The notes beneath the pieces are model-generated. The model was not told the DNA's origin. It ran no database searches and saw only the letters and a list, made by a program, of their open reading frames with translations. A stretch of DNA of 64,000 bases from an uncultured Gammaproteobacteria bacterium (lineage in GTDB: Bacteria > Patescibacteriota > Patescibacteriia > Magasanikbacterales > UBA10003), in contig CAYIOJ010000001.1 in assembly GCA_964365025.1 (NCBI GenBank), positions 42,475-106,474 of the forward strand, given 5' to 3'. Position numbers and translations under genes: made by a program. Shown here piece by piece: positions 5,871-48,211 of the stretch. Positions within the stretch are counted from its first letter, which is position 1, and each line of letters starts with the position of its first letter.

Positions 5871-6812
5871 CTATTGGCTTAAAATGTATTTTGATTCCAT
5901 TTTAATTGTTTCAAAAGAACCAAATTTAGGATGATAACCCAAATTGTTAATTTTACCATACTTTGAATAATAAATGCTTTTTGCTCCTGTTGCGCTCTCA
6001 CTACTCACGGATGTGTCCATTTGAAACATTAAACCGTATTTTCGAACAAAATAATCAACCACTTCTCTTTTCTCCACTGGCCTGGCACTCATAACATCAA
6101 AAGCTCCATTAATATGGCTCGCGGCTAAACACTTCATAACCACAACAAAAAGATCGTCTGGATGAACATAATCACGAATAATATTTTGATTATCAGTGAC
6201 AAAAACTTTCTTTTTCAAGATGCAGGATAATAGTTCGGTAATAAAATACCCATCCGTCAAGTCAATAAACCGACTAAAATAAGAAAAGAGCCTAAGATCC
6301 ACAATGTTCAAATCAGCGAATGCTCTGTGTTTGGCCTCGGCATTGAGCCTGGCAATCGCATAATAGTCTTCTTTATTTATGTGATTAACACTTATACAAT
6401 TTGTCGTATTTTCTCTTGCTGGCGCCGAAAAAACTTTACCATAGACCGCTCCGCTGCTGAAACTTATATAAAGCGTCTTGGGATGGTTGCGACGCAAATA
6501 CGCTATAACCAGATTATCGTATTCTTCGGTTATTGTAAAATATGCCGCATAATCGCCTTTATGTTTGTTAATGGTGCCAATACCAACGCAGTTAATCACC
6601 ACATCGTAATCGCGGTTAGGAAAATCCGCAAATCCATTATAAATAAAACGGTCTTTTCCTTCACACTTGCCAATGGCAACTAAAAAATCGTTTACCTTAT
6701 CGGCCGAGCGCGCATACAAATGCAAACAAAATTCCTCGCTTTGTAAAAAGTTATAAATTAACCCTTTGGCGATATGAGATGTAGCGCCCAAAATGGCGAT
6801 ATTTTTTTTCAT
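5871..6812 (-). CDS. NAD(P)-dependent epimerase/dehydratase/reductase (extended SDR) family protein.
   Basis: N-terminal Rossmann motif IAILGATSHIAKGL; 313 aa. Confidence 0.45.
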   Translation of the reverse strand: MKKNIAILGATSHIAKGLIYNFLQSEEFCLHLYARSADKVNDFLVAIGKCEGKDRFIYNGFADFPNRDYDVVINCVGIGTINKHKGDYAAYFTITEEYDNLVIAYLRRNHPKTLYISFSSGAVYGKVFSAPARENTTNCISVNHINKEDYYAIARLNAEAKHRAFADLNIVDLRLFSYFSRFIDLTDGYFITELLSCILKKKVFVTDNQNIIRDYVHPDDLFVVVMKCLAASHINGAFDVMSARPVEKREVVDYFVRKYGLMFQMDTSVSSESATGAKSIYYSKYGKINNLGYHPKFGSFETIKMESKYILSQ

Positions 6813-8008
6813 CAGTAAAGCGTTATTATCTCGTTATTTAATTTTAAAACCTCTCTGATTTGATGAATAATTTCTTCTTGATAAGAATGCGAAGAAATAA
6901 AAACCGGAACGCCTTCTTTAATCGCTTCTGGCGGTTTCACTTCTAGCCCTTTTATTTTTTTGCCGGCGTATCTTTTATTTGAATCGACAAAAAATAGTAT
7001 CTTGGACAAATCCAAACCGCTGCCTATAAGTCTCTGGGTGTGGGTACCCACGCCCCAAATAATTATTTTATCTTTACCTGACAACTTCTCCTGAATAATT
7101 TGATTAAGAGTTAAATCCATTGCTAAGCATTTTGTGATGTACTCTCTTACACGCGGCTCGCTGATGTCGTCCCGAACTATTTTTAACGTCTCTTCCGCTG
7201 TCTTTTTTGACAAACTGAGAATTTCCGTATCAACAGCGTTATTCAACTTGTGCTCATCCTGTCGAACCGCAATCTCTTCAAATGAAAATCGCGACAATAA
7301 ATTTTTTATGGAATATCGTGAAAAATAATTGATATGCTCCGTGCTGAATTGTTGAAATGGCGCTGAAACGAATAAAGAAAACTTTTCCGCGTTTGGAACG
7401 GCTATAAACAACAAACCATTTTCGTTTAACAATGATCTAATTTTTTGCATTGAATAATCAAAATCAACCAAATGCTCTAAAACCGCGGATAAAATAATCA
7501 AATCAAATTTTTCTATAGAATTAAAATTATAAACTGTATCGGTCGTCACTGTAATATCATATAATTCTTTAGCTGTTTTAGAACACTCCGATGATGGGTC
7601 AATGCCAAAAATGTTTGAATACCCGTTTAATTTAAAAATTGACAGCAAGCTACCCGTTGAACAGCCTATATCTAAAATTTTGGCATTTTTATTTTGCACG
7701 CGTGGCGCTAAAAAATTAAATATTTTCGTAAAATAGTCAACATATTCCTTTGAAACCCGCCCGCCCTGATAACTAAACTCATACTTAGACATGGCGGCGT
7801 AATAACCGTCGAAGTCAGCTTGTAACGGAATCCCGTCCGCAAAAACGAACCCGCATTTATCGCATACGACCACATCGTAACCGTCCATCAAAAAAATAGT
7901 CTTGTCACTAAACTTTTGTCTAAAAAGTAGCACTTTTTCTAAACAAGAACAGATGGGGCAAGCCCGACTCTTATTGCTGAGCATAAAATTTTTTGAGTCT
8001 CTCGACAT
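6812..8008 (-). CDS. NDP-hexose C-methyltransferase-like (TylCIII architecture: Zn-ribbon + class I MTase + C-terminal domain).
   Basis: N-terminal CPICSC...CDKCGF zinc ribbon, SAM motif ILDIGCSTGSLL and a ~120-aa C-terminal extension, 398 aa total. A likely alternative start (MLSNKS, about 7984) reduces the overlap with the upstream gene. Confidence 0.55.
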   Translation of the reverse strand: MSRDSKNFMLSNKSRACPICSCLEKVLLFRQKFSDKTIFLMDGYDVVVCDKCGFVFADGIPLQADFDGYYAAMSKYEFSYQGGRVSKEYVDYFTKIFNFLAPRVQNKNAKILDIGCSTGSLLSIFKLNGYSNIFGIDPSSECSKTAKELYDITVTTDTVYNFNSIEKFDLIILSAVLEHLVDFDYSMQKIRSLLNENGLLFIAVPNAEKFSLFVSAPFQQFSTEHINYFSRYSIKNLLSRFSFEEIAVRQDEHKLNNAVDTEILSLSKKTAEETLKIVRDDISEPRVREYITKCLAMDLTLNQIIQEKLSGKDKIIIWGVGTHTQRLIGSGLDLSKILFFVDSNKRYAGKKIKGLEVKPPEAIKEGVPVFISSHSYQEEIIHQIREVLKLNNEIITLY

Positions 8009-8993
8009 CGTTTTTCAAATCATCTTCCGGAAAAAACCTGTATTTAATGATATTGCATTCCGCGCAAGTCTGACAAACATTTTTAGCGCCATCAAGCATT
8101 TTTTTTCTAAATTCTTGGAATTTCTGTCCGTTCCAAATATCGCGCACCGACTGACTGTTGCAGTCTCCCATAGTTGCCGGATATTCAAAAGAATAGCAAG
8201 GCACGACTTTCCCGTCCGGATTTATCTGCATATGAAAAAATGGCTGGGGACAAACAGGCATGTCAAAAACCGGTAATCCAAATTGTGTCACTTGTGTTTC
8301 TTTATCTTTTAAAACATTTTTATAATCTATTCCCGCGTGAATCGGGACAGTATGCTCAATCGCCATAGTGTCACAAATATCTTCAAATAATTCGTAAAAT
8401 CTTTTTTCATCCTTTTTATCATCTACAGCCGTGTCTACAATTTTAATATAAACATGGGCTTTATTTTTGTTCTGATAAAAATATTTCAAATTGCCAATAA
8501 ATTTATCAAAATCAAGATTGACGCCACAAACTTTTTTATACTTTTCTCGAGTCGTTCCCTGAACGGAAACAACCAACCTAGTGAGTCCGGCCGCCAAAAG
8601 CGCGTCAGAAATTTGTGGAGTGAGAAGAAAAGCGTTTGTTAAAATTTCAATTGTATTGGCTATATTTTTTTTAGCTGTGCACCTAACCATTTCAACTATG
8701 TCTTTGTGTAAAAGAGGCTCGCCGATCCCAACGAAACGAATAACTTTAATTTTATTGGGGAAGGTGGTCATTTCATCCACGCATTTCTTATACAAATTTA
8801 AATCCATCATTACTTTATCTGAAATAAATCCCCGTTTTGCCGTGTCTATGGAAAAAATACAATAACAACACTTAAACACGCAGGCATATACTGGAAAGAT
8901 CTGCACAACAAATGGAGTATTCAATGGAAGAGCGTCTGCGAGCTTGGTCCTCTTCCCTCCCGGGGCTTGACCGCTGATATCTTTAGCCTTCAT
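7971..8993 (-). CDS. Radical SAM enzyme with C-terminal SPASM-like Cys-rich domain.
   Basis: CxxxCxxC motif in VYACVFKCCYCIF. C-terminal cysteines CPQPFF...VVPCYSF...CNSQSVRDIW...CQTCAEC resemble a SPASM domain. Confidence 0.65.
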   Translation of the reverse strand: MKAKDISGQAPGGKRTKLADALPLNTPFVVQIFPVYACVFKCCYCIFSIDTAKRGFISDKVMMDLNLYKKCVDEMTTFPNKIKVIRFVGIGEPLLHKDIVEMVRCTAKKNIANTIEILTNAFLLTPQISDALLAAGLTRLVVSVQGTTREKYKKVCGVNLDFDKFIGNLKYFYQNKNKAHVYIKIVDTAVDDKKDEKRFYELFEDICDTMAIEHTVPIHAGIDYKNVLKDKETQVTQFGLPVFDMPVCPQPFFHMQINPDGKVVPCYSFEYPATMGDCNSQSVRDIWNGQKFQEFRKKMLDGAKNVCQTCAECNIIKYRFFPEDDLKNDVERLKKFYAQQ

Positions 8994-9008: not shown

Positions 9009-10670
9009 TTATTTCAACGAAACCAAAACAAATTGATTAACTAAATTTCTCCAAAATACGGATTCTTTTAAAATTTTTTCGTATTTTATTTTGTATTCAC
9101 GATATTTCTCATCTAAATTCATTGTCAAGCAACATTTGGCTGCAAAATAATAAGCAAACGCGTGGTCATTCTTTACTCTTATTGTGTTTTCAAATCCTTT
9201 CAGCGCCACAGCATAATTTCCTAACTTAAAATCATTGTTCTCTACAAAATTGAGTTCAAGATTCAAAAAATAAGCTTTTTCTTGTATATATTCTGGTGTA
9301 AAATCTTCGGTTTCCACAATTGCCCTCTTAAAATCACAATTAATATAATCACCCTTAATATAATTATTTTTTAGGCAAACATCAAGCATTTCGCTACCAA
9401 CAAGAGGAGTGGCCATACTAATTCTAAACCATGATCCATTGAGAGTTTTTAAAAATGAACGCGCGTCTTCTATATCCTGTTTTGTTTCACCGGGCAATCC
9501 TATAAGTATCGACACATCAGAAACTATTCCCAATTGACGACAATCATCAACTACGCGTTTTACAATTGAAAGATTGAGCGGTTTATGCATAATTTCTTTT
9601 AAAACTCTATTACTGCCTGACTCTACTGACAAAACAAGATTATTTACCCCAATACTTTTAAGAGCCTCGAGCATTTTCCTATCTAAAGCATATAGAGCCA
9701 GCGAATTCGGAAAAAAGGCCGTCAAACGCAAATTTTTTATTATATCAAAAATTTCATAAACTCTTTTTTTGTCAGCCATTAAATGATCATCAAAAAAAAT
9801 CAATGTCTCTGCGCCATATTTATCTTTCAACCGCTTAAAATCCTCTTTGACGCGTTTCATACTATAATAACGCATTTTTCTTCCATGTACAGTGTATGAA
9901 GAACAGAAACTGCAACGATGAGGGCACCCTCTAGAGATCATAACCGACATCCCTTTTCTTTTTCTTTCTTCTTCAAGTGGAAAAAGTGAAAGTATGGGAT
10001 TTATACCGTAATCCTTTATGTTCAGAATATCGTAATCTAAAAACGGTATCTCATCTAGGTCTTGAACAAAATCATGTTCAAAAGATTGTTTATTTTTTAT
10101 TTTCTTATTTGTGATCCAAGATAAATTATTTTCTAAAAAATAAACTTTATCTTCTGCCATCATTAATCCTAAAAACGGTTTTTCTCCCTCACCATAACAA
10201 AGAGCGTCAAAGCAATAACTCTCTTTAAAAATCTGATTAAACATGTTGGTTGGAATTCCTCCTCCAGCTACTATCAAAGCGCTGGGAAATAAGTCACGCA
10301 CAGCCTGTCCTAAATCAATCATATTGTGATACGCCGGCGCAAATAATGTCGATATACCCACTACGGTTGGTTTAAAATCGATCCACTCTTTTTTAGAAAA
10401 AAAATCGTAAAACAATTCTATAAAAGAACCGAAACTAAAATCTACCATCTTATTTAAAACGACATTAAAATCAATAAATTTTATCTCTATTGAATTTATA
10501 TTTTTTTTTAAATAGGAGCTTATGGATAAAATACCTAAAGGCATTTCGGTCACCAAACTGCCGAAACTCCCATTTTTTTTAAACACCACACGCTCATTAA
10601 AATCTGGTTTTACAAAACTTGTATAAGTTATGTACGGTGGTACTATAAACAATAAACGGTCCGTTATCAT
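9009..10670 (-). CDS. Cobalamin (B12)-binding radical SAM enzyme (class B, putative C-methyltransferase).
   Basis: N-terminal B12-binding-like Rossmann region, then MISRGCPHRCSFCSS (Cx3Cx2C); 553 aa. Confidence 0.65.
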   Translation of the reverse strand: MITDRLLFIVPPYITYTSFVKPDFNERVVFKKNGSFGSLVTEMPLGILSISSYLKKNINSIEIKFIDFNVVLNKMVDFSFGSFIELFYDFFSKKEWIDFKPTVVGISTLFAPAYHNMIDLGQAVRDLFPSALIVAGGGIPTNMFNQIFKESYCFDALCYGEGEKPFLGLMMAEDKVYFLENNLSWITNKKIKNKQSFEHDFVQDLDEIPFLDYDILNIKDYGINPILSLFPLEEERKRKGMSVMISRGCPHRCSFCSSYTVHGRKMRYYSMKRVKEDFKRLKDKYGAETLIFFDDHLMADKKRVYEIFDIIKNLRLTAFFPNSLALYALDRKMLEALKSIGVNNLVLSVESGSNRVLKEIMHKPLNLSIVKRVVDDCRQLGIVSDVSILIGLPGETKQDIEDARSFLKTLNGSWFRISMATPLVGSEMLDVCLKNNYIKGDYINCDFKRAIVETEDFTPEYIQEKAYFLNLELNFVENNDFKLGNYAVALKGFENTIRVKNDHAFAYYFAAKCCLTMNLDEKYREYKIKYEKILKESVFWRNLVNQFVLVSLK

Positions 10671-11764
10671 AAAAATAATCTCTGGTCTTTATTAAACGGC
10701 TTTTGTGTTTTATCTTCATCGGTAAAGACTTCCGAGCATGGCACAGGCAATGATTTGCCATATATTCTTCCGGCGACATACTTTTTAATAAAATCCCGAT
10801 CTTCCGCTATCGTGCAGGTGTCAACATATTCGCCGAAATATTTAATACCAAACCCTCTTTTAATTATATCCTTCAATGGCTCCTTTAAAATATTACCAAC
10901 CGATGTATGAATATATGGACAAGGGAGTACATCTCCATATTGCGTTACGGAAAACATCCCTTTGAGCGCGATGCAACCTATATTAAGTCCGTAAGCGGGA
11001 GTCAAATGAGTAAAGACCTTGTACTTTTTTTCCAATTCCTCCATGTAGGTCATGTCTTTTTTATCAACCAGACCTTCATAATTACCTTCCCACGCGCCGA
11101 CTGGTTTGGCATAGCTTACAAACACACCAATTCCTTTATTAGTAAAATATTCTAAATATTTAATAAACTCTTCCGAATACAGTCGCTCTTTCCAAACAAC
11201 AGTCTGCATAAAAATATCCAACCCGACTTTTCCGACCGCGTCAACGGCTCTCATAACCCTTTCATGCGCACCTTTGGCATGTCTAAATTTATCGTGTTCC
11301 TCGGCGTCTAAACTATCTAAACTTACCTGCACACGGTCAATACCAATGCTTTTTAAATGTTTTGCCCGATTTTCATCCAATAACCACCCATTTGAATCGC
11401 AATTTATATAAAATTTTTGCGGATCAATCGCCGCGACCAATTCGTCAAAATCTTTAAAAACCAATGGTTCGCCTCCGGTTATCGTTACGCGCGCCAACCC
11501 CAATTCGTCTGCTTGTCTGAAAAGTTCTTTTACATCAGGAATGGTCATCTGTGGAGCGTCATTTCTACCTTGAAACTTCTTGATTGAGCAGTGTTCGCAG
11601 GCAAAATTGCAGGTATAATTATACTGAAATTGAATAATGGCAATGCTTTCTCCCCTTTTAATTTTCTCGTTAAATTTCATTATTTTCTTGTAAACAAGGG
11701 GTTTTTCTTCTTTGAGTTTGTTCCTATTTTTGATTTCAGCAAATTTCAACGATTCATTTATCAT
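10667..11764 (-). CDS. Radical SAM enzyme (sugar-modifying type; twitch/SPASM-like C-terminus).
   Basis: FQYNYTCNFACEHCS (Cx3Cx2C), GGEPL glycine-rich SAM motif, C-terminal cysteines LPCPYIH...YVDTC. Confidence 0.6.
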   Translation of the reverse strand: MINESLKFAEIKNRNKLKEEKPLVYKKIMKFNEKIKRGESIAIIQFQYNYTCNFACEHCSIKKFQGRNDAPQMTIPDVKELFRQADELGLARVTITGGEPLVFKDFDELVAAIDPQKFYINCDSNGWLLDENRAKHLKSIGIDRVQVSLDSLDAEEHDKFRHAKGAHERVMRAVDAVGKVGLDIFMQTVVWKERLYSEEFIKYLEYFTNKGIGVFVSYAKPVGAWEGNYEGLVDKKDMTYMEELEKKYKVFTHLTPAYGLNIGCIALKGMFSVTQYGDVLPCPYIHTSVGNILKEPLKDIIKRGFGIKYFGEYVDTCTIAEDRDFIKKYVAGRIYGKSLPVPCSEVFTDEDKTQKPFNKDQRLFL

Positions 11765-11792: not shown

Positions 11793-12749
11793 TTAATTTT
11801 TAAAATATTCTTTATACCAAAGATATGTTTCCGCAATTCCATCTTCAAAACTTATTATCGGCACCCAATTTAATTTTTCTTTCGCCTTGGACCAGTCAAG
11901 ATACTGTGCCGGTATTTCATTTTTAGCGATATTCAGGACATTATATTTGATTGTCTGTCCCAAAATTTTTTCTATTCTGTTTATAACATCTATAACGCTA
12001 TAGATGTTCGTACTACCGAAGTTAAAAGCTTCTCCAGCCGCTATTTCTATGTTTTGAGCCAATTTTATACAACCATCAATTATGTCTTTAACATAAACAT
12101 ATTCTCTGACCATTTTTCCATCGCTTCTTACCGCCAGTTCAGCGTCTTTTATTGCCGCTTCTAATGCTCCCGGAATAATTCTGGAAAAATTAAAATCCCT
12201 GGGACCATAAACATTGCTGAATCTCGTTATAACGACTGGCAGGCCATAAGTTGAAAAAAATGCTTGGGCTATCAAATCGGCGGCCGATTTTGATACATCA
12301 TAAGGATGACTGCCTTTCAACGGAAAAAATTCTTTATAAGGCAATTCCTTCGTTCTACCGTATGCCTTATCGGAAGAAATAACAACGACAAATTTTAAAT
12401 CTCCTTTTTGTCTACATGCTTCCAATACATTTACCGTGCCCATGATATTTGTTTCCAGAGTTTCAACGGGATTTTCATAGGCCTTTTCAACAATTGGCTG
12501 CGCGGCTAGATGGAACACGCCATCTATTTTTTCTCTCTCCAAAATTTGAAAAATATTTTTGTCTCTAACATCAGCTTTGTAAAACCTAGCTTTAAGGTTT
12601 ATATTTTCTCTTTTTCCGCTGGATAAATTGTCAATCACAACAACATTGTGGCCCCTTTCTATCAGTTCATCTACTAAATGGGAGCCGATGAAGCCGCCTC
12701 CCCCTGTCACTAAAATATTTTTCGCTTTTAGTCCGTCCATATTTTCCAA
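11793..12749 (-). CDS. NAD-dependent sugar-nucleotide epimerase/dehydratase, plausibly CDP-hexose 4,6-dehydratase or epimerase.
   Basis: VTGGGGFIGSHL Rossmann motif, ISSDKAYG (resembling the SDKxY of CDP-glucose 4,6-dehydratases) and a YDVSK catalytic YxxxK. It lies next to rfbF. Confidence 0.5.
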   Translation of the reverse strand: MENMDGLKAKNILVTGGGGFIGSHLVDELIERGHNVVVIDNLSSGKRENINLKARFYKADVRDKNIFQILEREKIDGVFHLAAQPIVEKAYENPVETLETNIMGTVNVLEACRQKGDLKFVVVISSDKAYGRTKELPYKEFFPLKGSHPYDVSKSAADLIAQAFFSTYGLPVVITRFSNVYGPRDFNFSRIIPGALEAAIKDAELAVRSDGKMVREYVYVKDIIDGCIKLAQNIEIAAGEAFNFGSTNIYSVIDVINRIEKILGQTIKYNVLNIAKNEIPAQYLDWSKAKEKLNWVPIISFEDGIAETYLWYKEYFKN

Positions 12750-13519
12750 AAAGGATCATTTGTCCAATGTTCGTTCATCTCTTCCGCTTCTTTATGAGTA
12801 TCCATGCACTTCCATTTTCCTGGATGGCAATAAACGGAAAGCTGTCCTTTTTCCGCTAAAAGAGGAAACACGGCTTCAATCATGCCGCCCGGCGGTATCA
12901 GATTCAACACATCGCGATTAAAAACCATAAATCCGCCATTGATAAAATCTCTAGATAAATCATCTTTCATGCCCTGAGTTACTTTGTGCTGAAAAAAATC
13001 TTTAACTTTCTTGGCATCATGGTCAATATTTAAAAAACCAAACCGCGAGGCCGGTCGAACTCCCGTGACTGTCGCCAAAGCGTTTTGCGCCCGATGAAAA
13101 TCAACCAACTCTTTTATGTTTATATTACCCACACCATCTCCATAAGTCACCATAAAATCGTCACCGTCAATATATTTTGCTAATCGCCTGACACGTTCTC
13201 CGGTTAAAGTATCCTGGCCGGTTTCGGCAAAAGTAATCTTAAAATTGTCACACTCATCATTATGAAAAAAAATCTCATTAGATTTAGTATGGAGGGTAAA
13301 ATCGTTAATCAAGCCGCGCCAATTTAAAAAGTATTCTTTAATCATGTGACCCTTATAGCCCAAAGCCAAAACGAACTCATTGTAACCATGATGAGCATAT
13401 AATTTCATGATATGCCACAAAATCGGCTTGCTACCGACCAAAACAAGTGGTTTTGGCTTAAACTCGGTTTCCTCTTTCATTCTAGTGCCCACACCGCCGC
13501 AGAGAATGACTACTTTCAT
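12728..13519 (-). CDS. rfbF: Glucose-1-phosphate cytidylyltransferase (CDP-glucose synthase).
   Basis: MKVVILCGGVGTRMKEETEFKPKPLV...GSKPILWHIMK is the characteristic RfbF/DdhA N-terminus. The six-frame ORF runs to 13585, but MKVVILCGG at 13519 is the probable true start. Confidence 0.7.
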   Translation of the reverse strand: MKVVILCGGVGTRMKEETEFKPKPLVLVGSKPILWHIMKLYAHHGYNEFVLALGYKGHMIKEYFLNWRGLINDFTLHTKSNEIFFHNDECDNFKITFAETGQDTLTGERVRRLAKYIDGDDFMVTYGDGVGNINIKELVDFHRAQNALATVTGVRPASRFGFLNIDHDAKKVKDFFQHKVTQGMKDDLSRDFINGGFMVFNRDVLNLIPPGGMIEAVFPLLAEKGQLSVYCHPGKWKCMDTHKEAEEMNEHWTNDPFWKIWTD

Positions 13520-13556
13520 AAGCTCAAATATTAATGTCTTTTGAGATAAAATTGTA

Positions 13557-38051: not shown

Positions 38052-38777
38052 TTAATCTAATAAATTAAACTTGATAATAGACCAGATGGCGCAAAAAGCG
38101 TCTCTGGCGCCTATTTTTTTACCCTCGGCGTAAGTTCGACCGTAATAAGAAATACCAACCTCATAGAGCCGCAACTTTTGTTGAGCGATGCGAGCTGTTA
38201 TCTCCGGCTCAATATTAAAACGATTGGCGCGCAGATACGGTAAAATTTTCTGCAAAGCTTCACGAGTAAATGCTTTATATCCTGTCTCCATATCCGTCAG
38301 GTTCAAATTAGTTAACATGTTAGAAAAAAAGGTCAAAAATTTATTAGCCACAGAATGCCAAAAAAACAAAACACGATGCGGACGGTCTCCCATAAATCTT
38401 GATCCATATACCACGTCAGCTTTTCCATCAAATAAGGGCTCCAACAACAGTGAATATTCTTTTGGATCATATTCTAAATCAGCGTCCTGCATGATAATAA
38501 AATCACCAGTGGCTAAAGAAAAACCTCGGCGCAAAGCCGCTCCCTTGCCAATGTTTTTATCCTGATAAACTATCTTATATTTATCACCCAGAATTTTTAA
38601 AATTTCACGGGTTCCATCTACAGAAAAATCGTCAACAATTATTATTTCTTTTTCTATTGATTCCAAATTCACCGATTCTACTTTTGAAATAATATTAAGA
38701 ATGGTGTTTTTCTCGTTGTAAACAGGGATTATGATTGATAATTTGGACATAAAATTATTCTTTCTTGGCCAAAACAT
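38052..38777 (-). CDS. GT2 glycosyltransferase, DPM1-like polyprenyl-phosphate sugar synthase.
   Basis: [14 protein letters not shown]...[11 protein letters not shown]...QDADLEYDP. Confidence 0.65.
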
Positions 38778-39534: not shown

Positions 39535-39536
39535 AT

Positions 39537-40601: not shown

Positions 40602-41416
40602 ACAAGGGTTGCCTCCAATCCTTTGACAAATGGAGTTGCCACAACATTCAGCAATTTTTGCCAATCATCACTTTTATAAACTTCATCGCTTAACAAAGTT
40701 TTAATTTGCCACAATGTCAGTGGGAAGAACGGCAAAAAAGAAATTACCCGAATCAAACCGGAAAAAAATACAGGAGCATTGATTTTCCAAAATTTATAAC
40801 CAAAATTCTTTAAATAGTTTAAAATTGTCTCAAAACTAATAATTTCTAGCCCAGCCATATTTATAATCTGATTTGCTGACGAATCAATGCAGGCGCTGAT
40901 TGCCATGACCAAATCTTCAATAAAAATCGGCTGTAAACGAAAATTTAAAACCGGCATTATCAGTGCAATTCTGGCCAATTTAAGCAAAAACCAGACATTT
41001 TTATTGTCGCCCGGGCCATAAACCATGCTGGGGCGCAAAATGATATAAGGCAGGCCGGAACCCAAAATATTTTTTTCCGCCGCTCTTTTAGAATCAATAT
41101 AGGGGTCATTTAGTTTTGATAAAACCCTGATACTGGACAAAAAAATTAAACGCCGAACATCCAACCGCCGTCCCATTTCAATGATATTATTGGTCCCGTC
41201 AACATTAACTCTTTCAATAAATTTTTTATTTTTATGGCCAATGATAGCCGCCAAATGGATCAGGGCGTCTATTTTTTCATCACTACAAAAACTCTGTGTA
41301 TCTTCTTTTTTAGAAACATCGCCAGTAAATAAAACAACTTCATTCCCATTCTTTTTAAGTTGTTCGACAAGATACGAACCGATAAACCCTGTCCCGCCTG
41401 TAATTAAAATGGCCAT
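40598..41416 (-). CDS. Short NAD-dependent epimerase/dehydratase family protein.
   Basis: MAILITGGTGFIGSYLVEQL; 272 aa. Confidence 0.5.
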   Translation of the reverse strand: MAILITGGTGFIGSYLVEQLKKNGNEVVLFTGDVSKKEDTQSFCSDEKIDALIHLAAIIGHKNKKFIERVNVDGTNNIIEMGRRLDVRRLIFLSSIRVLSKLNDPYIDSKRAAEKNILGSGLPYIILRPSMVYGPGDNKNVWFLLKLARIALIMPVLNFRLQPIFIEDLVMAISACIDSSANQIINMAGLEIISFETILNYLKNFGYKFWKINAPVFFSGLIRVISFLPFFPLTLWQIKTLLSDEVYKSDDWQKLLNVVATPFVKGLEATLV

Positions 41417-42759
41417 AAAAAATTTTCAAAAAAATATTTGGGCATGTGCCTTGCTAGATAGGCAGGGCGGAAATAATAAGACACAAATGCCCATTCTTTT
41501 AGTCTTAACAACTCTTCTGTTTTTAAATTTTTGTGTTTAAAAATTGGGGTATATTCATCATATTCTTCCCAATTTCGATTAAAAATCATTTTTTCTTTTT
41601 CCAACTTTTCAAAAAATCTAGTGCCGGGATAAGGCGTGACTATTGCAAATTGAGCCACTAATGTATTCAATCTCTTGGCATATCTGATTGTCTCTAAAAT
41701 TGATTCTTTTGTGTCGCCTTCCAAACCGATTAAATAAAACGCCGCCACTGTTATTCCCAGTTTATGGCAATAAGCCACCATTTCATCCTGATAAGCCTCT
41801 ACAACCGGTAAACGTTGAGACTTTTTTAAAATCTCGGGATTAGACGATTCAATTCCCACATTGATATTTCTCAATCCCGCCCGATACATCAAATTCAGTA
41901 AATCCTTATCAACTTTGTCAAGTCTGGTTTCGCACGACCAAATTATTTTTAAATTTTCCAATATCAATCTTTCAGCGAATTCTCGCGTTCTTTGCTTGCT
42001 ACAAGTAAAAAGCGGGTCCCTAAAATCAATCGCCATAACGCCATAATTATTTTTCAACTCTTTTATTTCTTTTATTATGTTGTCTATCGTTCTTAAACGC
42101 AATCTGGCGCCGGCCAGGAGCGGATAAGCGCAATAATATGAGCAGGTATGCGGACAGCCGCGAGATGCCAACATTACCGTAACCGGTTTTTTGTTTAACG
42201 CCGGCGAATAAGAATATTTTTTTAAAGAAAACGAACTCCAATCCGGAAACGGTAAATAATCCAAATTTTCAACTTGGCCCGCCTCAAAAATTCCGCTGGG
42301 CAATTCCTTTTGATTAACAATTTTTATGGCCGCCGCTTCGGCCTCACCCCTTATCACAAAATCGGCGTCATTAATAAAAAAATCCGGCAAGGCCGAGGCG
42401 AAAGTTCCATAAACTCCCACCTTGAGGCCTCTGCTTTTTATAATCCTCGCCACTTCACATTCGTGAAAACAATCAACAATAGAAGACGGGACCAGCGCCA
42501 AATCTGCAGTAATTGTTTTAATTTCCAATCCACGCCCCACCTCTACGCGTTCAACTTCCCAGCCGGCTTGTTTGAAAATAGCGACGAGATAAGCCGATGT
42601 AATTTCCGGCAAAACAACGCTCTTCTTTTTAACATATTCAAAAATTCTAGCCCGCCAAGAATTACCGATCCATGTGCCCGTGCCCATACCGCCGGCCAAA
42701 TCTTTATTAATGCACTTCTTGCTATTCCGCGCTTGAATTTCAAATAATGCAACTTTCAT
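41404..42759 (-). CDS. B12-binding radical SAM-like enzyme with a non-canonical Cx3Cx3C cluster motif.
   Basis: MLASRGCPHTCSYYCAYP; DNA checked at 42130-42165. Overall similarity to the other three B12-binding radical SAM proteins (N-terminal B12 domain, same size class). Confidence 0.5.
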   Translation of the reverse strand: MKVALFEIQARNSKKCINKDLAGGMGTGTWIGNSWRARIFEYVKKKSVVLPEITSAYLVAIFKQAGWEVERVEVGRGLEIKTITADLALVPSSIVDCFHECEVARIIKSRGLKVGVYGTFASALPDFFINDADFVIRGEAEAAAIKIVNQKELPSGIFEAGQVENLDYLPFPDWSSFSLKKYSYSPALNKKPVTVMLASRGCPHTCSYYCAYPLLAGARLRLRTIDNIIKEIKELKNNYGVMAIDFRDPLFTCSKQRTREFAERLILENLKIIWSCETRLDKVDKDLLNLMYRAGLRNINVGIESSNPEILKKSQRLPVVEAYQDEMVAYCHKLGITVAAFYLIGLEGDTKESILETIRYAKRLNTLVAQFAIVTPYPGTRFFEKLEKEKMIFNRNWEEYDEYTPIFKHKNLKTEELLRLKEWAFVSYYFRPAYLARHMPKYFFENFLWPF

Positions 42760-43736
42760 ATTTTCAACATTGCCTCAACAAACTTATCTTTATCACCCAC
42801 CGGCACAATCGTAACTTTCGAACCTGGTTTTAATTCATAATTGGCCACACCCACGTCGGTCATAATGACCGGCATGCCAACCGCGGCCGCTTCCATGGCC
42901 ACCAAACCATATCCTTCGCTCAGGCTGGGGAACAAAACACAATCAGCGGTTTTTAAATAACCATATGGATCCTCTGTCCAATTCTGTAATTTTATATTGT
43001 CATCTAAATTATTACTTATCACTTGACTCCTAATTTTTTGTTCTTCTTCACCCCGACCAACTATTAATAATAGATAATTTTTCTGTTTTATAACTTTTTT
43101 AAAAATTTCTATTAACCATGGAATATTTTTTACAGGGTCAAGCCTGCCTAAAATCAAAAATATCTTTGCATAGCCTGGATATTTACTGCGCAAATCTATT
43201 TCGAAAACAAGAGAAAGATGTCTAATCAGCTCCGGATCATTTTGTATTGATCTAACTATTATTTTACTCTCTGCAACACTCAGACTTAATAAACTTTGTT
43301 TTATTCTTTCTCCCGCCACTCTGATTTTATCCGCATGTCTCAAAATAAATTTAGCCATGCATAATTTAAACCATTGATTCTTATAATAACCGCCAAAAAA
43401 ATCACCGTGTACCTGCACTTCTAATTTAATTTTAAATTTACGCTTCAGACACCAACCAACCAAACCTGTAAAAAAGGGATCCTGTGTGGTAATTTCCTCA
43501 ATATTTTTTTCTTTAATTAACTTTTTCCCAATTTTCTTTAAACGACAAAATTGCTGTAATTTATTTCCCCCTGTTGATTGTATGTGAACAGTGGAACTTA
43601 AATCAAAGACCTCCCCTTCTCTGCTTGGAATAATAATAAATAATTCATCTTCTTTCCCATACTCAATCATGCGTCTAGTAACAATGGAATCTTTATTTAA
43701 AATATTTTCGTCCAGACTGATCATTAAAATCCTCAT
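42756..43736 (-). CDS. GT4 family glycosyltransferase.
   Basis: FPSLSEGYGLVAMEAAAVGMPVIMTDVG (EX7E motif). Confidence 0.6.
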   Translation of the reverse strand: MRILMISLDENILNKDSIVTRRMIEYGKEDELFIIIPSREGEVFDLSSTVHIQSTGGNKLQQFCRLKKIGKKLIKEKNIEEITTQDPFFTGLVGWCLKRKFKIKLEVQVHGDFFGGYYKNQWFKLCMAKFILRHADKIRVAGERIKQSLLSLSVAESKIIVRSIQNDPELIRHLSLVFEIDLRSKYPGYAKIFLILGRLDPVKNIPWLIEIFKKVIKQKNYLLLIVGRGEEEQKIRSQVISNNLDDNIKLQNWTEDPYGYLKTADCVLFPSLSEGYGLVAMEAAAVGMPVIMTDVGVANYELKPGSKVTIVPVGDKDKFVEAMLKI

Positions 43737-43739: not shown

Positions 43740-45185
43740 CTACTTTGTTACAAACTTTTTTGCTAATTTAAACTCCACCGGCCACCAAAAAAATTTCAAC
43801 TTCCATCGCAATTTACAAATTAAAATAAATCCTAATTTCAAAATTCTACTGGCACTGACCGAGGAACCCAGCGCGCTCTTGACGCTATGCGCGCCAAAAC
43901 GCACATAGGCCTCCATTGATTCAACAAAATTTTTATCTTTTACCCAAGGAAAATTTTTCACCGCTAAATAGCTCAATTGATTTTGTGCCAGATGCGCCCA
44001 TTCATCTAACGTGCGCGGCGCTTGCCAACCAGCAACCAGACACTCTTCATACAAAGTGGAACCTGGATAAGGACGAAAAGCTTGCGGCCCAATAATTTGC
44101 ACTTTTTCGCTTAATTTAGCCAATTTATCAATTAAATCAAGGGTCATCATCATATCATTTTTTTCCTCTCCTGGCAAGCCAATCATAAATGAATATTGGG
44201 GAATTATATCATATCGCCAGCACATCTTAGCCGAATTGATAATTTGCTCCGGAGTGATGTGTTTTTTAATTTTTTCCAAAATTCGCAAACTGCCTGATTC
44301 TGCTCCAAAAGATAATAAATAACAACCCGACCGCCGCAACCGCTCCATTAATTCATCGTCAATCATTCCCGGCCGAATATAATCTGCCCTAACTGTTGTC
44401 TCCCACGGTATAATTAAATTTCGCTCAATCATGCCACTGACTATTTCACGCGCGCGATTAATGTCAACAAAAAAATTTTCATCCCAAAAACGCAACTTTT
44501 TATCTTTAAAATATGCCTTGCTCTTAATAATTTCCAAATCACACAAAACTTGTTCGGCCGTTCTCATTCTCCAACTATTTTTTAAAATGGCATTAATACA
44601 AAAAGTGCAAAAATGCGGACAGCCGCGCGAAGTTAACGATGGTATCAAACGCAAATTCCGCAAAATTTCAGGCGCCACCAAATCCCAATTAAACAAAGGC
44701 ATTTGGGCCGGATCATGCAATGCTCGCGGAGAATTAATAATAATTTGCCCGTCTTTTTTATAAGCAATGCCTTTGACATCTTGCCACTGCCGACCTTGAG
44801 CAATTTCCAACATGGTTATTTCCCCTTCCCCAAAACAAACCGCGTCTACCAAATCGTGCTTGGCTGTCTGATGAATAAAAAATGTTGGATGCGACCCGCC
44901 CCAAACAATTTTACAAAACGGCTTCAGCTGTCGGATTTGTTTAGCAATTTCAATTGCTTGTGGCAGCTGCATTGTCATCACGGACAATCCGGCGCACTCA
45001 CAATCAACAATTTCGCGTTGAAGCATCTCCAAATAATTTTTCTGCCTGACGCAATCAATCAATTTAACAGAAATGCCCTGACTGTCTAAAAAAGAAGCAA
45101 TACTTAGCAAGCCGACAGAAACAGAACTGTCATAATTTTCCTTGACGATATTAAATTGCGGATTGATAAGCAAAATTTTAGCCAT
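43740..45185 (-). CDS. Cobalamin-binding radical SAM enzyme (class B).
   Basis: N-terminal B12-binding-like domain; LTSRGCPHFCTFCIN (Cx3Cx2C); 481 aa. Confidence 0.65.
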   Translation of the reverse strand: MAKILLINPQFNIVKENYDSSVSVGLLSIASFLDSQGISVKLIDCVRQKNYLEMLQREIVDCECAGLSVMTMQLPQAIEIAKQIRQLKPFCKIVWGGSHPTFFIHQTAKHDLVDAVCFGEGEITMLEIAQGRQWQDVKGIAYKKDGQIIINSPRALHDPAQMPLFNWDLVAPEILRNLRLIPSLTSRGCPHFCTFCINAILKNSWRMRTAEQVLCDLEIIKSKAYFKDKKLRFWDENFFVDINRAREIVSGMIERNLIIPWETTVRADYIRPGMIDDELMERLRRSGCYLLSFGAESGSLRILEKIKKHITPEQIINSAKMCWRYDIIPQYSFMIGLPGEEKNDMMMTLDLIDKLAKLSEKVQIIGPQAFRPYPGSTLYEECLVAGWQAPRTLDEWAHLAQNQLSYLAVKNFPWVKDKNFVESMEAYVRFGAHSVKSALGSSVSASRILKLGFILICKLRWKLKFFWWPVEFKLAKKFVTK

Positions 45186-46329
45186 GCTGATTAACTTCTT
45201 TTAAGAAATTGACTGTTTGTTCAATCACATCGCTCCACACGAATTTTCTTAAACCCTGACGACAAGCGTCTTGAAAAAGAATACTCTGCCAATAAGAATC
45301 AGACAAAATATTTTTAATAGCCGCCTTAATTTGTTCACGATTATTATATTCCACCAGCAAACCATTTTTTCCGTTTTCAATCACTTCCGGATTGCCGCCG
45401 CAATTACTTGCAATAATCGGCTTGCCCAAACTTAAAACTTCCAAAATCACGTGGGACAAACCTTCATACTGCGAATTAAGAATAAAAACATCGGCTGTTT
45501 GATAGTATTCAAAAATTTTATCCAGAGGCGCGCGGCCGATAAAAAACACTTCATGTTTCAGCTTATATCCGTCTCTTATGGCCTCCAGACGCCGTCTATC
45601 CGATCCGTCGCCGATAATCAATAATTTCAAAGACGGAAATTCCTGACGCAAGCCGCTTAACACATCTATAAGTCCGTCAAAACCTTTCCAAGGCGCTAAG
45701 CGGCCGGCAGTCACAATTAATTTATCATCATTGGCTATTCCTAATTTCTCTCGCGTTGCCATTTCATCAGCAATTCGCTCCGGTAAAAAATCAACCGCGT
45801 TGTAAATCACTTGAAGTTTTGCCAAATCAACACCGATACGCACCGCTAAATCCTTCATAAAATTACTTACCGCCACAACCTTATCCGCTCCGCGCAAGAT
45901 TTTTGTTCTTAAATTTTTCAGCAGAAAAATTTTGGGACCATAACTGCCATCTTGAAAAGATAAAATATCATCTTTAGTAATACCCGCGTTGGCGGCTATT
46001 TCCCAAGCGCTGTCGCCGGCAAAACGCACTGCTAATTTTTTATTTAAAAACACTTTGCCAACGAGCCAAGACAAAAAACCGGCTGTATAAAGATCAAAAG
46101 TATAAATAATATCGGCCTGACCGGCTAGATTAAATAAATTCCACAGAAACAAAAATTTATTTGATACTTTAACGACACGATAACTTCTAATCTTTCTATC
46201 ATTCTGACCAAAAGCCAAAACAGTGATTTCAATGCCCTGCGTTTGTAAATCTGCAGCCAACTGTTCAATTATTCTCGCCGGTCCGCCGATATCCGGCGGA
46301 AAAATCCCTGAAGTAATCAATACTTTCAT
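45178..46329 (-). CDS. GT4 family glycosyltransferase (start probably MKVLITSG at 46329; the ORF extends to 46395).
   Basis: NSQYEGLSHVILEVLSLGKPIIASNCGG (EX7E). Confidence 0.6.
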   Translation of the reverse strand: MKVLITSGIFPPDIGGPARIIEQLAADLQTQGIEITVLAFGQNDRKIRSYRVVKVSNKFLFLWNLFNLAGQADIIYTFDLYTAGFLSWLVGKVFLNKKLAVRFAGDSAWEIAANAGITKDDILSFQDGSYGPKIFLLKNLRTKILRGADKVVAVSNFMKDLAVRIGVDLAKLQVIYNAVDFLPERIADEMATREKLGIANDDKLIVTAGRLAPWKGFDGLIDVLSGLRQEFPSLKLLIIGDGSDRRRLEAIRDGYKLKHEVFFIGRAPLDKIFEYYQTADVFILNSQYEGLSHVILEVLSLGKPIIASNCGGNPEVIENGKNGLLVEYNNREQIKAAIKNILSDSYWQSILFQDACRQGLRKFVWSDVIEQTVNFLKEVNQHG

Positions 46330-47252
46330 AATAAAATAATCAACACCATTACTAGCCACACTAACAAGGTGATTTGCAGAGGCCGATCGCGCCACAAATC
46401 ATCAGCTGGGCCGTCGTCGCTCGTACTTTTTTTATCAAAAATATACAAATAACGAAACAAACCATACAAAACCACTGGTACTGTCAGAATCAGCCATTGA
46501 CTCTGCCAAGTATTAAAAGTGTATAAAGTATAAGTAATTAAAATCGCGGGCAGTACCACCGTATTCATCTGATTGAGCATGCCCAAAGAGTAATCAACCA
46601 GCACGCCGCGGGCCATAGAACCGACTGAAACCAATTCGCTTTTTCTTTTGCCGATGGCTAAAAACAAAGTCAGAAAAAAAGTGCATAGAATTAACCAGGG
46701 AGAAAAAAACACTCCGATTACTATCGCGCCGGCAATAACTCGCAAAACAAAACCCAAAGCAATGCAAATGATATCAATCATAACCGCGCGCTTCAACCAA
46801 AAACTATAAATCAAATTAAGAACAACATAACCAGCTACTATCCAGAAAAAAATTAAACCCAGTTTCCAGCTTATCAATAAAGCCGCGGCTATCAATAAAA
46901 TTCCCCCAATGGCAGCGGTCAAACGAGAAATTTTTGCTGATGCAACAGGTCGATTTTTTTTTGATGGATGCTCTTGATCATTTTTAAAATCAACAACATC
47001 ATTAATCAGATAAACGCCGCTCGAAGCCAAGCAAAATAAAATAAAAGCGAACAAACTCAATCGTATGGCCGGCCAATCAGTAAATTTCTTGGCAAAAATC
47101 AACGCGGCAAAAATAAAAAAATTTTTAATCCAGTGGCGGGGGCGCAAAGAAATAAATAAGTATTTCAAAAACATAGTTATTCGTGGCGCGCAAATATCTT
47201 TTTTTTGCTGCGGACTGTCGCCGCGACTGCAAAAAAGAAATTTGCGCGCCAC
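46326..47252 (-). CDS. UbiA-family prenyltransferase, decaprenyl-phosphate phosphoribosyltransferase-like (polyprenyl-P pentose synthase).
   Basis: LINDVVDFKNDQEHPSKKNRPVAS (the NDxxDxxxD motif of UbiA) and about 8 TM. The start is uncertain (GTG 47252 or ATG 47174). Confidence 0.55.
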   Translation of the reverse strand: MARKFLFCSRGDSPQQKKDICAPRITMFLKYLFISLRPRHWIKNFFIFAALIFAKKFTDWPAIRLSLFAFILFCLASSGVYLINDVVDFKNDQEHPSKKNRPVASAKISRLTAAIGGILLIAAALLISWKLGLIFFWIVAGYVVLNLIYSFWLKRAVMIDIICIALGFVLRVIAGAIVIGVFFSPWLILCTFFLTLFLAIGKRKSELVSVGSMARGVLVDYSLGMLNQMNTVVLPAILITYTLYTFNTWQSQWLILTVPVVLYGLFRYLYIFDKKSTSDDGPADDLWRDRPLQITLLVWLVMVLIILL

Positions 47253-47257
47253 TTTAC

Positions 47258-48211
47258 TCAGCTTATTTTGTAATTTGAAGTACTAAAATAATTAATCGTT
47301 TCCGGCAAGCCATCTTCTAATTTCACTTTGGGCGACCAGTTCAATATCTTTTTAGCCAAACTGATATCCGGCTTTCTTTGGCGAGGATCATCTTCCGGCA
47401 GTTTTTCATAAACAATTTTTGATTTTGAATTAGTCAGTTTAATAATTTTTCCCGCCAACTCCTTAATTGTAAATTCATTGGGATTGCCTAAATTCACCGG
47501 GCCAATAAAATTTACCGGACTAGCCATTAATTTAATTAACCCATCAATCATATCTGACACATAACAAAAACTGCGCGTCTGGTTGCCTCGGCCATAAATT
47601 GTCAACGACCGACCGAACAACGCCTGCACAATAAAATTGCTCACCACTCGGCCGTCATCGCGCGCCATTTTCGGCCCGTAAGTGTTAAAAATACGCGCCA
47701 CTTTTATCTCCAACCCCCACTGGCGATGATAATCAAACATTAAGGTTTCGGCCACGCGTTTGCCTTCATCATAACAAGCGCGCGGGCCAATCGAGTTGAC
47801 ATTGCCGCGATAAGATTCTTTTTGCGGATGCTCCAAAGGATCGCCGTAAACTTCGGAAGTGGAGGCCTGCAAAATCCTAGCTCGATGCTTTTTAGCGCAA
47901 CCCAATACATTGATCATGCCAATGGTATTGGCTTTGATGGTGCGAATGGCATTCATTTGATAATGAATCGGCGAAGCCGGACAAGCTAAATTATAAATTT
48001 GATCAATTTTTTCTTTAATAAAAAAAGGCTCAATGATATCGTGCTGGATAAATTTGAAATTCGCATTTTTTAAAAGATGTTGGATATTTTTTTTAGAACC
48101 GGTAAATAGATTATCCAAACAAATCATTTTGTGTCCCCGCTCTAAAAGCCGCTCACAAAGATGAGAACCGATAAATCCGGCTCCGCCTGTCACTATAATC
48201 ATTTTTTGCAT
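47258..48211 (-). CDS. uxs: UDP-glucuronate decarboxylase (UDP-xylose synthase).
   Basis: [43 protein letters not shown] and [10 protein letters not shown] are typical of UXS/ArnA-decarboxylase-type SDRs. Confidence 0.65.

Follow-up and report, generated by a model that had tools for sequence, protein, structure and literature searches.

To our knowledge, sugar tailoring by radical S-adenosylmethionine (SAM) enzymes is known almost solely from antibiotic pathways of cultured actinomycetes. Among the described systems closest to the locus presented here is AprD4, a radical SAM 1,2-diol dehydratase that does not bind cobalamin and that, together with the NADPH reductase AprD3, deoxygenates C3′ of paromamine; a 2017 review counts it as the only known radical SAM dehydratase. 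Others are HpnJ of the hopanoid pathway, by which the glucosamine ring in a lipid-linked sugar is contracted, the YerE-type thiamine enzymes, which place acyl branches on CDP-4-keto-3,6-dideoxyglucose (with alpha-keto acids coming via an aldolase and a reductase following), and the E1alpha/beta-like proteins AviB1/AviB2 and Pau11/Pau12, which attach an acetyl branch at C4 of a sugar. Here, we examine a 64,000-nucleotide stretch of contig CAYIOJ010000001.1 (positions 42,475 to 106,474; hereafter the window), from a bacterium of the Patescibacteria (candidate phyla radiation, CPR), in which eight radical SAM genes share one block with glycosyltransferase and sugar-pathway genes. We consider it likely that this locus is the core of a CPR cell-surface glycan island made of at least four conserved sugar-tailoring cassettes, apparently moving horizontally, with a radical SAM enzyme in each. 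Antibiotic-type radical SAM chemistry, including an AprD4-type dehydratase, appears to be built into envelope-glycan assembly.

Eight radical SAM enzymes in one co-directional block

Between positions 746 and 48211, about 48 kb of the minus strand carry 43 co-directional open reading frames (ORFs), with 99.5% of the sequence coding and only four intergenic gaps longer than 40 nt. Eight of the 43 genes encode radical SAM enzymes, here called S1–S4 and B1–B4, all of which exceed the gathering score of the Pfam family Radical_SAM (PF04055), in agreement with a first-pass annotation made from the letters alone. Seven carry a CX3CX2C motif, and B3 has CX3CX3C, as in AprD4. S1 (7971–8993), S2 (10667–11764), S3 (16921–18024) and S4 (20762–21856) also contain a SPASM domain (PF13186, 25–62 bits for a cutoff of 21.5), which bears out the four SPASM/twitch-like enzymes that had been proposed. 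The four B12-binding class B enzymes proposed alongside them come down to three, as the B12-binding domain PF02310 (cutoff 32.1 bits) is found in B1 (9009–10670, 39 bits), B2 (25215–26648, 52.1 bits) and B4 (43740–45185, 58.5 bits) and has no match at E < 0.01 in the AprD4-like B3 (41404–42759).

According to Pfam, on which family assignments rest here unless stated otherwise, the block further holds three small GT2 and four GT4 glycosyltransferases, four SAM methyltransferases, five short-chain dehydrogenases/reductases (SDRs), two thiamine-dependent systems, two EamA transporters and HAD phosphatases. The methyltransferases and nucleotide-sugar genes are as previously noted, and nine GT2/GT4 genes become seven within the block plus a divergent GT4 on the plus strand (48217–49392). 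Only two of three membrane-bound GT-C transferases have Pfam support (YfhO and PMT_2), the third (13557–15350) having no family match. The conserved unit also extends beyond the previously assigned left edge at 6812, down to 746.

Several genes overlap by four nucleotides: the overlaps at 40598–40601 and 46326–46329, with in-frame ATG codons at 40601 and 46329, and at 42756–42759 are genuine. Promoter-like sites lie 5′ of 48211 (48266–48238), 29472 and 21856, and terminator-like hairpins follow 25215 (25181–25162) and 23698 (23679–23655), all being consensus matches only. The 43 genes are thus probably organized in a few transcription units, which agrees with the one or few polycistronic units suggested by the first-pass annotation. 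At the start of the block, the first operon gene (48211, minus) and the TTG start of the divergent GT4 (48217, plus) are 5 nt apart, so that either one or both starts are wrongly assigned or the promoters fall within coding sequence. At its other end, a TylF-like O-methyltransferase gene on the opposite strand (39–677, plus) converges on the operon, and the sugar-modifying region may extend past the left end of the window.

Could such a cluster have arisen by chance, or consist of housekeeping enzymes such as MoaA, MiaB, RlmN or QueE? Weak matches to MoaA and MiaB/RimO point that way, yet none of the eight enzymes reaches any curated NCBIfam cutoff, the best scores being about a third of the cutoff or less. 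This includes the housekeeping equivalogs (MoaA, with a best score of 100 bits against 284; MiaB/RimO, at most 41 bits against at least 251; HemN, NrdG, QueE and others). For an assumed, not measured, background share of 1–3%, eight radical SAM genes among 43 have a Poisson probability of about 2 × 10−8 to 6 × 10−5, and their neighbourhoods are conserved across phyla. Together these results refute both chance and housekeeping, and we dropped that reading.

To place the locus in context, we sampled about 120 loci, gathered via homologues of B1, B2 and B3, a B2 profile run on species-representative genomes and B4 homologues from metagenomes, and compared all window proteins with every fetched locus. 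Wherever we looked, orthologues of the radical SAM enzymes occur in glycan loci, as proposed for the window itself. The enzymes are present at 1.9 per 10 kb, held over 41 kb, and among 43 related loci of at least 15 kb, a biased sample as they were picked via radical SAM genes themselves, the median density is 1.1 and the maximum 2.7 per 10 kb. Thus, the concentration that had been called unusual is far above the assumed background, but related loci reach similar densities and the cassettes are each widespread; it characterizes a whole class of loci, widespread and apparently undescribed, and is not peculiar to this genome.

An AprD4-type enzyme with a putative reductase partner

The enzyme with the clearest relationship is B3. 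Its best match in the PDB is AprD4 (6fd2, E = 2.8 × 10−31), with GCPHTCSYYC of B3 aligning on GCPYPCRFYC of AprD4, and CX3CX3C is kept in 95 of 121 close homologues. An AlphaFold (AF2) model built from 48 homologues has a predicted local distance difference test (pLDDT) score of 94.2 and matches 6fd2 over its full length with Foldseek TM-scores of 0.82/0.82, the next best structures reaching 0.58–0.63. By these measures B3 is a relative of AprD4, although not an equivalog.

A short SDR gene (40598–41416, 272 aa) overlaps B3 and encodes GGTGFIG and YIDSK motifs, making its product a candidate ketoreductase partner. An SDR lies directly downstream of the B3 orthologue in seven of nine contexts, which are the window, Giovannonibacteria, Aenigmarchaeota, Chloroflexi and three others. 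The remaining members of this cassette (C3, about 36697–42759) are a PMT_2 GT-C transferase, the small GT2c, methyltransferase MT4 and GT4b (36697–40664). GT2c has AglJ, PpgS and ArnC as nearest named families (all below cutoff in NCBIfam), and its orthologues (44–48% identical) adjoin B3-like genes in five sampled loci (L033, L054, L117, L118 and L119); a PMT-type GT-C transferase adjoins B3 orthologues in three contexts.

By analogy with AprD4/AprD3, we infer that B3, as dehydratase, and the SDR, as reductase, jointly deoxygenate a sugar that may be attached to polyprenyl phosphate at that stage. B3 would dehydrate a vicinal diol of the sugar and the adjacent SDR would reduce the resulting ketone, giving a net deoxygenation. 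The substrate would probably be a polyprenyl-phosphate-linked sugar made by GT2c, to be transferred by the PMT-type GT-C enzyme. In the Aenigmarchaeota locus (L033, 5770–8484), a carbamoyltransferase gene beside the radical SAM genes has an apparent intein with a LAGLIDADG endonuclease domain (faint Pfam match).

Three further cassettes shared across phyla

Each cassette reappears, with its neighbours retained, in glycan loci of Omnitrophota, Elusimicrobia, Planctomycetes, Verrucomicrobia, Kiritimatiellota, Chloroflexi, other CPR bacteria and DPANN archaea, with radical SAM enzymes roughly 45–86% identical. The farthest downstream in the block, C1 (746–13585), starts in transcription order with a glucose-1-phosphate cytidylyltransferase-like enzyme (12728–13585; NCBIfam 273 bits, cutoff 300) and an NDP-hexose 4,6-dehydratase-like SDR (11793–12749; 189–193 bits on the CDP-/dTDP-glucose 4,6-dehydratase models, below cutoff). 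There follow S2 (Radical_SAM, SPASM and Fer4_12), B1, S1 (with a CVFKCCYC motif and C-terminal cysteines), the SAM methyltransferase MT1 (6812–8008, Methyltransf_23), an SDR-like protein (5871–6812) with a partial Epimerase match and without the N-terminal GxxGxxG motif that we sought, a fusion of a NeuB-like phosphoenolpyruvate (PEP) aldolase with a cupin (4319–5860, NeuB and Cupin_2), a HAD hydrolase (3386–4309), an EamA transporter (2427–3383) and a thiamine-diphosphate enzyme of 556 aa that resembles acetolactate synthase (ALS) and YerE (746–2416, TPP_enzyme N, M and C).

This order is unchanged in a Kiritimatiellota contig, and most of the genes are present in a Nanoarchaeota archaeon. 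Respective identities to the two are 67 and 70% for S1, 66 and 69% for B1, 75 and 76% for S2, 51 and 59% for MT1, 55 and 57% for the NeuB–cupin fusion and 40 and 53% for the thiamine enzyme, and the nucleotidyltransferase is 44% identical to its Kiritimatiellota orthologue. Across the three hosts, from the CPR, the DPANN archaea and the Kiritimatiellota, the three radical SAM enzymes are thus 66–76% identical, which far exceeds what would be expected from vertical descent and implies recent cross-domain transfer of the cassette; the figures point to frequent transfer and strong selection. B1 alone has more than 3,000 homologues, with a TPR-like C-terminus, the top ones being 60–76% identical and found in both bacteria and archaea; candidate Nitrospirota such as ‘Ca. 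Magnetomonas plexicatena’ also have a B1 orthologue.

Within C1, the NeuB–cupin fusion is closest in the PDB to the structural-genomics entry 3g8r (E = 4 × 10−112) and remains far below the cutoffs for sialic and pseudaminic acid synthases (132 bits against 400 and 131 against 340), so that by sequence it is a separate branch of the NeuB family, far from NeuB/PseI. The thiamine enzyme scores far below cutoff on the NCBIfam ALS models, and MT1 aligns weakly and in register with the sugar 3-C-methyltransferase TcaB9 (E of about 6 × 10−5 to 9 × 10−5). The cytidylyltransferase-like and 4,6-dehydratase-like enzymes would start the pathway from a CDP-hexose, which would be tailored by the two SPASM/twitch enzymes, the B12-binding enzyme, the methyltransferase and the SDR. 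The NeuB–cupin aldolase, a candidate keto-acid maker, would be paired with the YerE-like enzyme, and the product may be a yersiniose- or caryophyllose-type deoxy sugar whose carbon chain is branched or extended.

Cassette C2 (16921–33068) comprises S3, GT2b, E1beta, E1alpha and S4, followed by B2, a GmhB-like phosphatase, a SIS isomerase, a nucleotidyltransferase–kinase fusion, YfhO and SDR_c. The 234-aa GT2b (18021–18725) shares a 4-nt overlap with S3, and the pairing is conserved: S3 orthologues (58–72% identical) adjoin a GT2b orthologue in three loci (L010, L017 and L021), lie one gene away from it in L005 and also occur in L009, and GT2b orthologues within the cassette are 30–42% identical. 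S3 has 242 representative clusters at E ≤ 1 × 10−30, and its paralogue S4 is 29% identical to it over the full length. Between the two lie genes for an orphan thiamine-dependent E1beta (18732–19775) and E1alpha (19778–20758), with orthologues 49–56% identical in four loci (L002, L005, L008 and L012), in two of which (L002 and L008) an S4 orthologue (48–51% identical) is directly upstream of E1alpha. The pair scores just under cutoff on the NCBIfam pyruvate dehydrogenase E1 models, and the window has no E2 or E3 gene alongside it.

B2 has 553 homologues at E ≤ 1 × 10−10, of which the 120 listed are 47–92% identical and without exception carry CX3CX2C; in C2-type cassettes its orthologues are 51–63% identical. 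Its neighbours, the phosphatase, SIS isomerase and nucleotidyltransferase–kinase fusion (26651–29472), resemble the ADP-heptose pathway but score below its cutoffs (GmhA, 94 bits against 209; HldE, 126 against 521; GmhB, 85 against 178). The fusion (27937–29472) also has the nucleotidyltransferase first and the PfkB kinase second, the reverse of HldE and the same architecture as in L003 and L005. Orthologues of the three are 39–54% identical in the Omnitrophota and Elusimicrobia loci L009 and L017 (51–54% for the kinase fusion), in which SDR_c (32085–33068) is 66–67% identical. A YfhO GT-C transferase (29520–32072) completes the cassette, subsets of which co-occur in Brocadiales, Planctomycetes, Verrucomicrobiia, Omnitrophota, Elusimicrobia, Oligoflexia and Dehalococcoidia. 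The C2 sugar genes would work in the manner of the ADP-heptose pathway, although by these scores and the reversed domain order membership in it is unsupported. The isomerase, fusion protein, phosphatase and SDR would yield a nucleotide-activated heptose-like sugar, to which the orphan E1alpha/beta pair may contribute a two-carbon unit and which the two twitch enzymes and B2 may tailor, before the small GT2 loads it on polyprenyl phosphate and YfhO transfers it outside the membrane.

At the start of the block, C4 (42756–48211) consists of GT4c (42756–43736), B4, GT4d (45178–46395), and a UbiA-family polyprenyl-phosphate phosphoribosyltransferase with SDR_e, the latter being the first operon gene (46326–48211). 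The order GT4d, B4, GT4c is found in about 35 of 43 metagenome loci of at least 10 kb, with B4 66–86% identical; the slot past GT4c is often occupied by another radical SAM gene, and an SDR_e orthologue (at least 35% identity) is present in 13 of the 43. The UbiA protein narrowly passes NF008977 (Rv3806c type; 236.6 bits, cutoff 234). We propose that B4 acts between two GT4 steps on a growing oligosaccharide, beside the polyprenyl-phosphate phosphoribosyltransferase. On TIGR04157, whose name refers to the association of these glycosyltransferases with radical SAM genes in the Bacteroidetes (CFB) group, GT4d reaches 109 bits (cutoff 400), hinting at an older, little-studied pairing of the two enzyme types.

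Nearest named families and the possible chemistry of the other enzymes

The chemistry of the seven radical SAM enzymes other than B3 has to be approached through distant relatives. S1–S4 share a cysteine layout of CX(17–18)C with GX4C followed by two to four more cysteines, and have four (S2 and S3), five (S4) or six (S1) auxiliary cysteines. A pattern of four resembles that of sugar and cyclitol oxidoreductases such as BtrN. By this analogy, S2–S4 may be twitch enzymes of the sugar/cyclitol oxidoreductase type, a fit of cysteine pattern that does not amount to an assignment at the sequence level.

The NCBIfam matches of these four enzymes could instead indicate peptide or protein maturases, of the type that act on peptides that are made ribosomally and modified after translation (RiPPs) or in cofactor maturation, placed in a glycan setting by coincidence. 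The best match of S1, S3 and S4 is a tungsten-enzyme maturase family, and the lists include PqqE and a sactipeptide family; those of S2 are heme b synthase and MoaA, and GT4d matches a radical SAM-associated family. All of these scores are, however, far below cutoff, the block is 99.5% coding with no plausible RiPP precursor ORF in its gaps, which contain just TTG-start ORFs of 21–25 aa, and orthologues of S1–S4 are co-conserved with nucleotide-sugar and glycosyltransferase genes across phyla. With the BtrN-like cysteine pattern also arguing for sugar substrates, we consider the maturase explanation very improbable. The peptide-linked chemistry that had been suggested as one option was dropped, as the gaps hold no precursor ORF; of the protein-linked option, protein O-glycosylation is considered below. 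In the PDB, the best match of S2 is MoaA at only 67 bits, which does not discriminate function, and S3 has no match.

Methylation is the commonest reaction of class B radical SAM enzymes, and multiple radical C-methylations or epimerisations of the glycan had been suggested. Support for the methylations is lacking: one of the four enzymes is of the AprD4 type, and the relatives of the others include non-methylases (HpnJ, BchE and AprD4). HpnJ is the top NCBIfam match of B2, B3 and B4 (144–191 bits), with BchE also matched by these three and second for B2, and B1 is closest to a putative P-methyltransferase family, followed by HpnJ. Scores are at most 191 bits against 578 for HpnJ, at most 174 against 481 for BchE and 140 against 575 for the P-methyltransferase Sden_1168. 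AprD4 is the best solved-structure match of both B1 and B2, too distant to discriminate function. C-methylation by B1, B2 and B4 is possible and, because the top named families of B2 and B4 are non-methylases, unsupported.

The hopanoid methylase HpnR and the lipid-biosynthesis family ‘rSAM_ladder_B12’ are, with HpnJ, among the higher matches of B2, B3 and B4, as would be expected if the B12-type enzymes modified not a sugar but either the polyprenyl carrier or a membrane lipid. These scores are a third of the cutoffs or less, and HpnJ's own target is a sugar, the glucosamine ring of a glycolipid. Moreover, two GT4 genes flank B4 in most loci, B1 and B2 are located among nucleotide-sugar genes, and the window has no lipid-synthesis genes, all of which makes a lipid substrate quite improbable. 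GT2b is closely coupled to S3, as are GT4d and GT4c to B4, which suggests that the substrates of some of the radical SAM enzymes are lipid-linked or oligosaccharide intermediates.

The product may plausibly be a C-branched sugar, or one unusual in another way, as C-branching is independently supported by the YerE/ALS-like enzyme and the orphan E1alpha/beta pair. Of the heavily C-alkylated glycan envisaged by the first-pass annotation, C-branching through these two thiamine-dependent systems therefore stays plausible, with methylation lacking support.

Genes between and beside the cassettes and the probable destination of the glycan

Between C1 and C2 lie a 597-aa membrane protein with about ten transmembrane-like segments by hydropathy, a possible GT-C transferase without Pfam or NCBIfam match (13557–15350), methyltransferase MT2 and the small GT2a, together spanning 13557–16917. 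GT2a weakly resembles AglJ and Dol-P-hexose transferases (NCBIfam). GT4a, methyltransferase MT3 and an AsnB-type amidotransferase (33065–36694), the last with 468 bits on TIGR01536 (cutoff 267), separate C2 from C3. C2 itself contains an insert (21995–25093), set off by the three largest intergenic gaps and by terminator-like hairpins, that encodes a HAD hydrolase, an EamA transporter and, without family match, two further proteins, one of them with HD-like motifs. The HAD gene of the insert is annotated as two pieces (136 and 91 aa) in another copy at NCBI, the metagenome-assembled genome GCA_038078055.1.

Next to the block, two paralogous membrane proteins combine Wzy_C (O-antigen ligase/polymerase-like) with C-terminal TPR repeats (49912–52128 and 56279–58591, both minus). 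CPR bacteria have a single membrane and are not known to make lipopolysaccharide (LPS); if this holds for the host, the Wzy_C–TPR proteins may be polymerases or protein O-oligosaccharyltransferases. Between them, a 1,084-aa ORF on the plus strand (52281–55535) is rich in Asp, Cys (11%) and Thr, with a lipoprotein-like N-terminus (…MTGC) and seven Dicty_CTDC-type cysteine repeats. This repeat ORF accounts for the rise in GC content to 0.54 at 52–56 kb, which is not ribosomal RNA, as Rfam and transfer RNA scans of the window gave no matches; the numerous overlapping antisense ORFs there are probably artefacts. A protein of 1,258 aa (58678–62454, minus) follows, with an N-terminal hydrophobic segment, 13.7% Thr, 11.9% Ala and 10.4% Ser and no Pfam match, which from its composition is a candidate surface or S-layer-type glycoprotein acceptor. 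A DUF5667 protein (62711–63994) clusters at 90% identity or more with proteins of Candidatus Magasanikbacteria, and proteins of the window are identical to NCBI entries labelled ‘Patescibacteria group bacterium’ from GCA_038078055.1, so that the host is a CPR bacterium; the species-representative genomes scanned did not include that of the window.

From the three small GT2 enzymes, two or three GT-C transferases, the UbiA protein, the Wzy_C–TPR proteins and the Thr/Ser-rich protein, we infer that the glycan is assembled on polyprenyl carriers and moved outside the membrane to a polymer or surface protein. The acceptor would be a surface polymer or the Ser/Thr-rich protein, reached via the Wzy_C–TPR proteins, and protein O-glycosylation is a possible destination. 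The same genes bear on whether the locus is instead the cluster of a secondary metabolite, an oligosaccharide or aminoglycoside-like compound that would be secreted, for which one may invoke that the closest characterized analogues (AprD4/AprD3, GenK/GenD1 and AviB1/B2) come from antibiotic pathways and that the two EamA transporters could export a product. Such a cluster would not account for GT2 and GT-C enzymes of types that use polyprenyl-phosphate sugars outside the membrane, for a polyprenyl-phosphate phosphoribosyltransferase above cutoff, or for the Wzy_C–TPR and large surface proteins next door. In addition, we see no cyclitol synthase, regulator or resistance gene, and elsewhere the cassettes adjoin STT3, PMT, YfhO and Wzy_C genes. 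We therefore regard a secreted metabolite as unlikely and favour a cell-surface glycan.

Several observations weigh against this interpretation. B3 scores 129.4 bits on the AprD4 model NF033070, with a cutoff of 500; no SDR follows B3 in the closest relative locus (L037) or in L119; and AprD4 is known to act on an aminoglycoside pseudodisaccharide and not on a lipid-linked sugar. C1 contains no recognizable 3-dehydrase, and a CMP-activating enzyme for a NeuB product was not found. C2 is interrupted by the GC-richer insert (0.51 compared to about 0.40 nearby) with its terminator-like hairpins, and the promoters and terminators are assigned by consensus matching only. Finally, among the proteins tested against NCBIfam only UbiA and AsnB attain an equivalog cutoff, so that the substrates named here are guesses; the order of steps and their timing on a lipid carrier are likewise putative.

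A proposed shared toolkit for surface sugars

Whereas glycan islands are known, radical SAM tailoring cassettes are known from antibiotics and apparently undescribed for envelope glycans. We found no literature in which envelope-glycan loci, whether of CPR bacteria, DPANN archaea or other bacteria, are connected with radical SAM enzymes, and publications on AprD4 from 2019 on deal with aminoglycosides, other natural products, radical SAM reviews or unrelated subjects and none with envelope glycans, although coverage was incomplete in both cases and this is an absence of evidence.

More speculatively, and with somewhat less than even confidence, we propose that a mobile radical SAM toolkit, common to CPR bacteria, DPANN archaea and many other uncultivated anaerobes, tailors surface sugars without oxygen. 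Its reactions would be radical deoxygenation, C-branching or lengthening of the chain, and perhaps also methylation or rearrangement of the ring, some of them possibly on polyprenyl-phosphate-linked sugars, and would give types of monosaccharide new to characterized glycans; the window would stack four such cassettes into one glycan. Defined enzyme sets now stand out from these loci: a two-gene deoxygenation pair, a triplet of GT4, B12-binding radical SAM enzyme and GT4, and an 11-gene branched-sugar cassette.

CPR bacteria are summarized in the literature as ultrasmall cells with reduced genomes, the cultivated members of which grow attached to host cells. Such organisms combine very small genomes with a life attached to other cells, and their surface forms the interface to the host. 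The B12-binding enzymes also raise the question of where such reduced cells obtain cobalamin.

Comparison with known systems

Among the characterized systems, AprD4/AprD3 has the most direct counterpart in the window. B3 shares with AprD4 the rare CX3CX3C motif, the fold over its full length and the lack of a detectable B12-binding domain, and the short SDR usually found right downstream would mirror the dehydratase–reductase pair. B3 is, however, only about 20–35% identical to AprD4, and it lies in CPR and DPANN envelope glycan loci with GT2 and GT-C genes, not in an actinomycete aminoglycoside cluster.

B1, B2 and B4 can be set beside the C-methylases GenK and GenD1 by architecture only, as they combine a B12-binding with a radical SAM domain. 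GenK and GenD1 reportedly act on gentamicin pseudo-oligosaccharide intermediates, which parallels B4, whose place between two GT4 genes suggests action on a growing oligosaccharide. The nearest named relatives of the three include the non-methylases HpnJ, BchE and AprD4, so that methylation is not established. HpnJ offers a precedent for a class-B-type radical SAM enzyme working on a lipid-attached sugar, and heads the NCBIfam matches of B2, B3 and B4; here there are no hopanoid genes, and the scores of 144–191 bits compare with a cutoff of 578.

The likeness of C1 to the YerE, ErwE and MMAR_2332 pathways for the acyl-branched LPS and lipooligosaccharide (LOS) sugars yersiniose, erwiniose and caryophyllose is one of pathway logic: a CDP-glucose-type activation, a 4,6-dehydratase, an ALS-like enzyme, an aldolase-type enzyme and a reductase are all represented. 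It differs from them in its aldolase, which is a PEP-dependent NeuB–cupin protein and not a pyruvate aldolase, in having no E1/E3-type 3-dehydrase and in the addition of three radical SAM enzymes. In C2, the E1alpha/beta pair can be likened by gene make-up to AviB1/B2, being without E2 and E3 and inside a sugar pathway, but is tied to a heptose-like pathway with twitch and B12-binding radical SAM enzymes.

For the assembly machinery, the polyprenyl-phosphate-sugar systems (GtrB/CsbB or ArnC with YfhO, ArnT or PMT, and mycobacterial UbiA–DPA with GT-C arabinosyltransferases) are the nearest model, sharing the small GT2 enzymes, the GT-C transferases and UbiA. The GT2 enzymes of the window are about 235–240 aa long and have no C-terminal membrane helices, no DprE1/E2-type epimerase is present, and, in contrast to these systems, the genes are interleaved with those for radical SAM tailoring.

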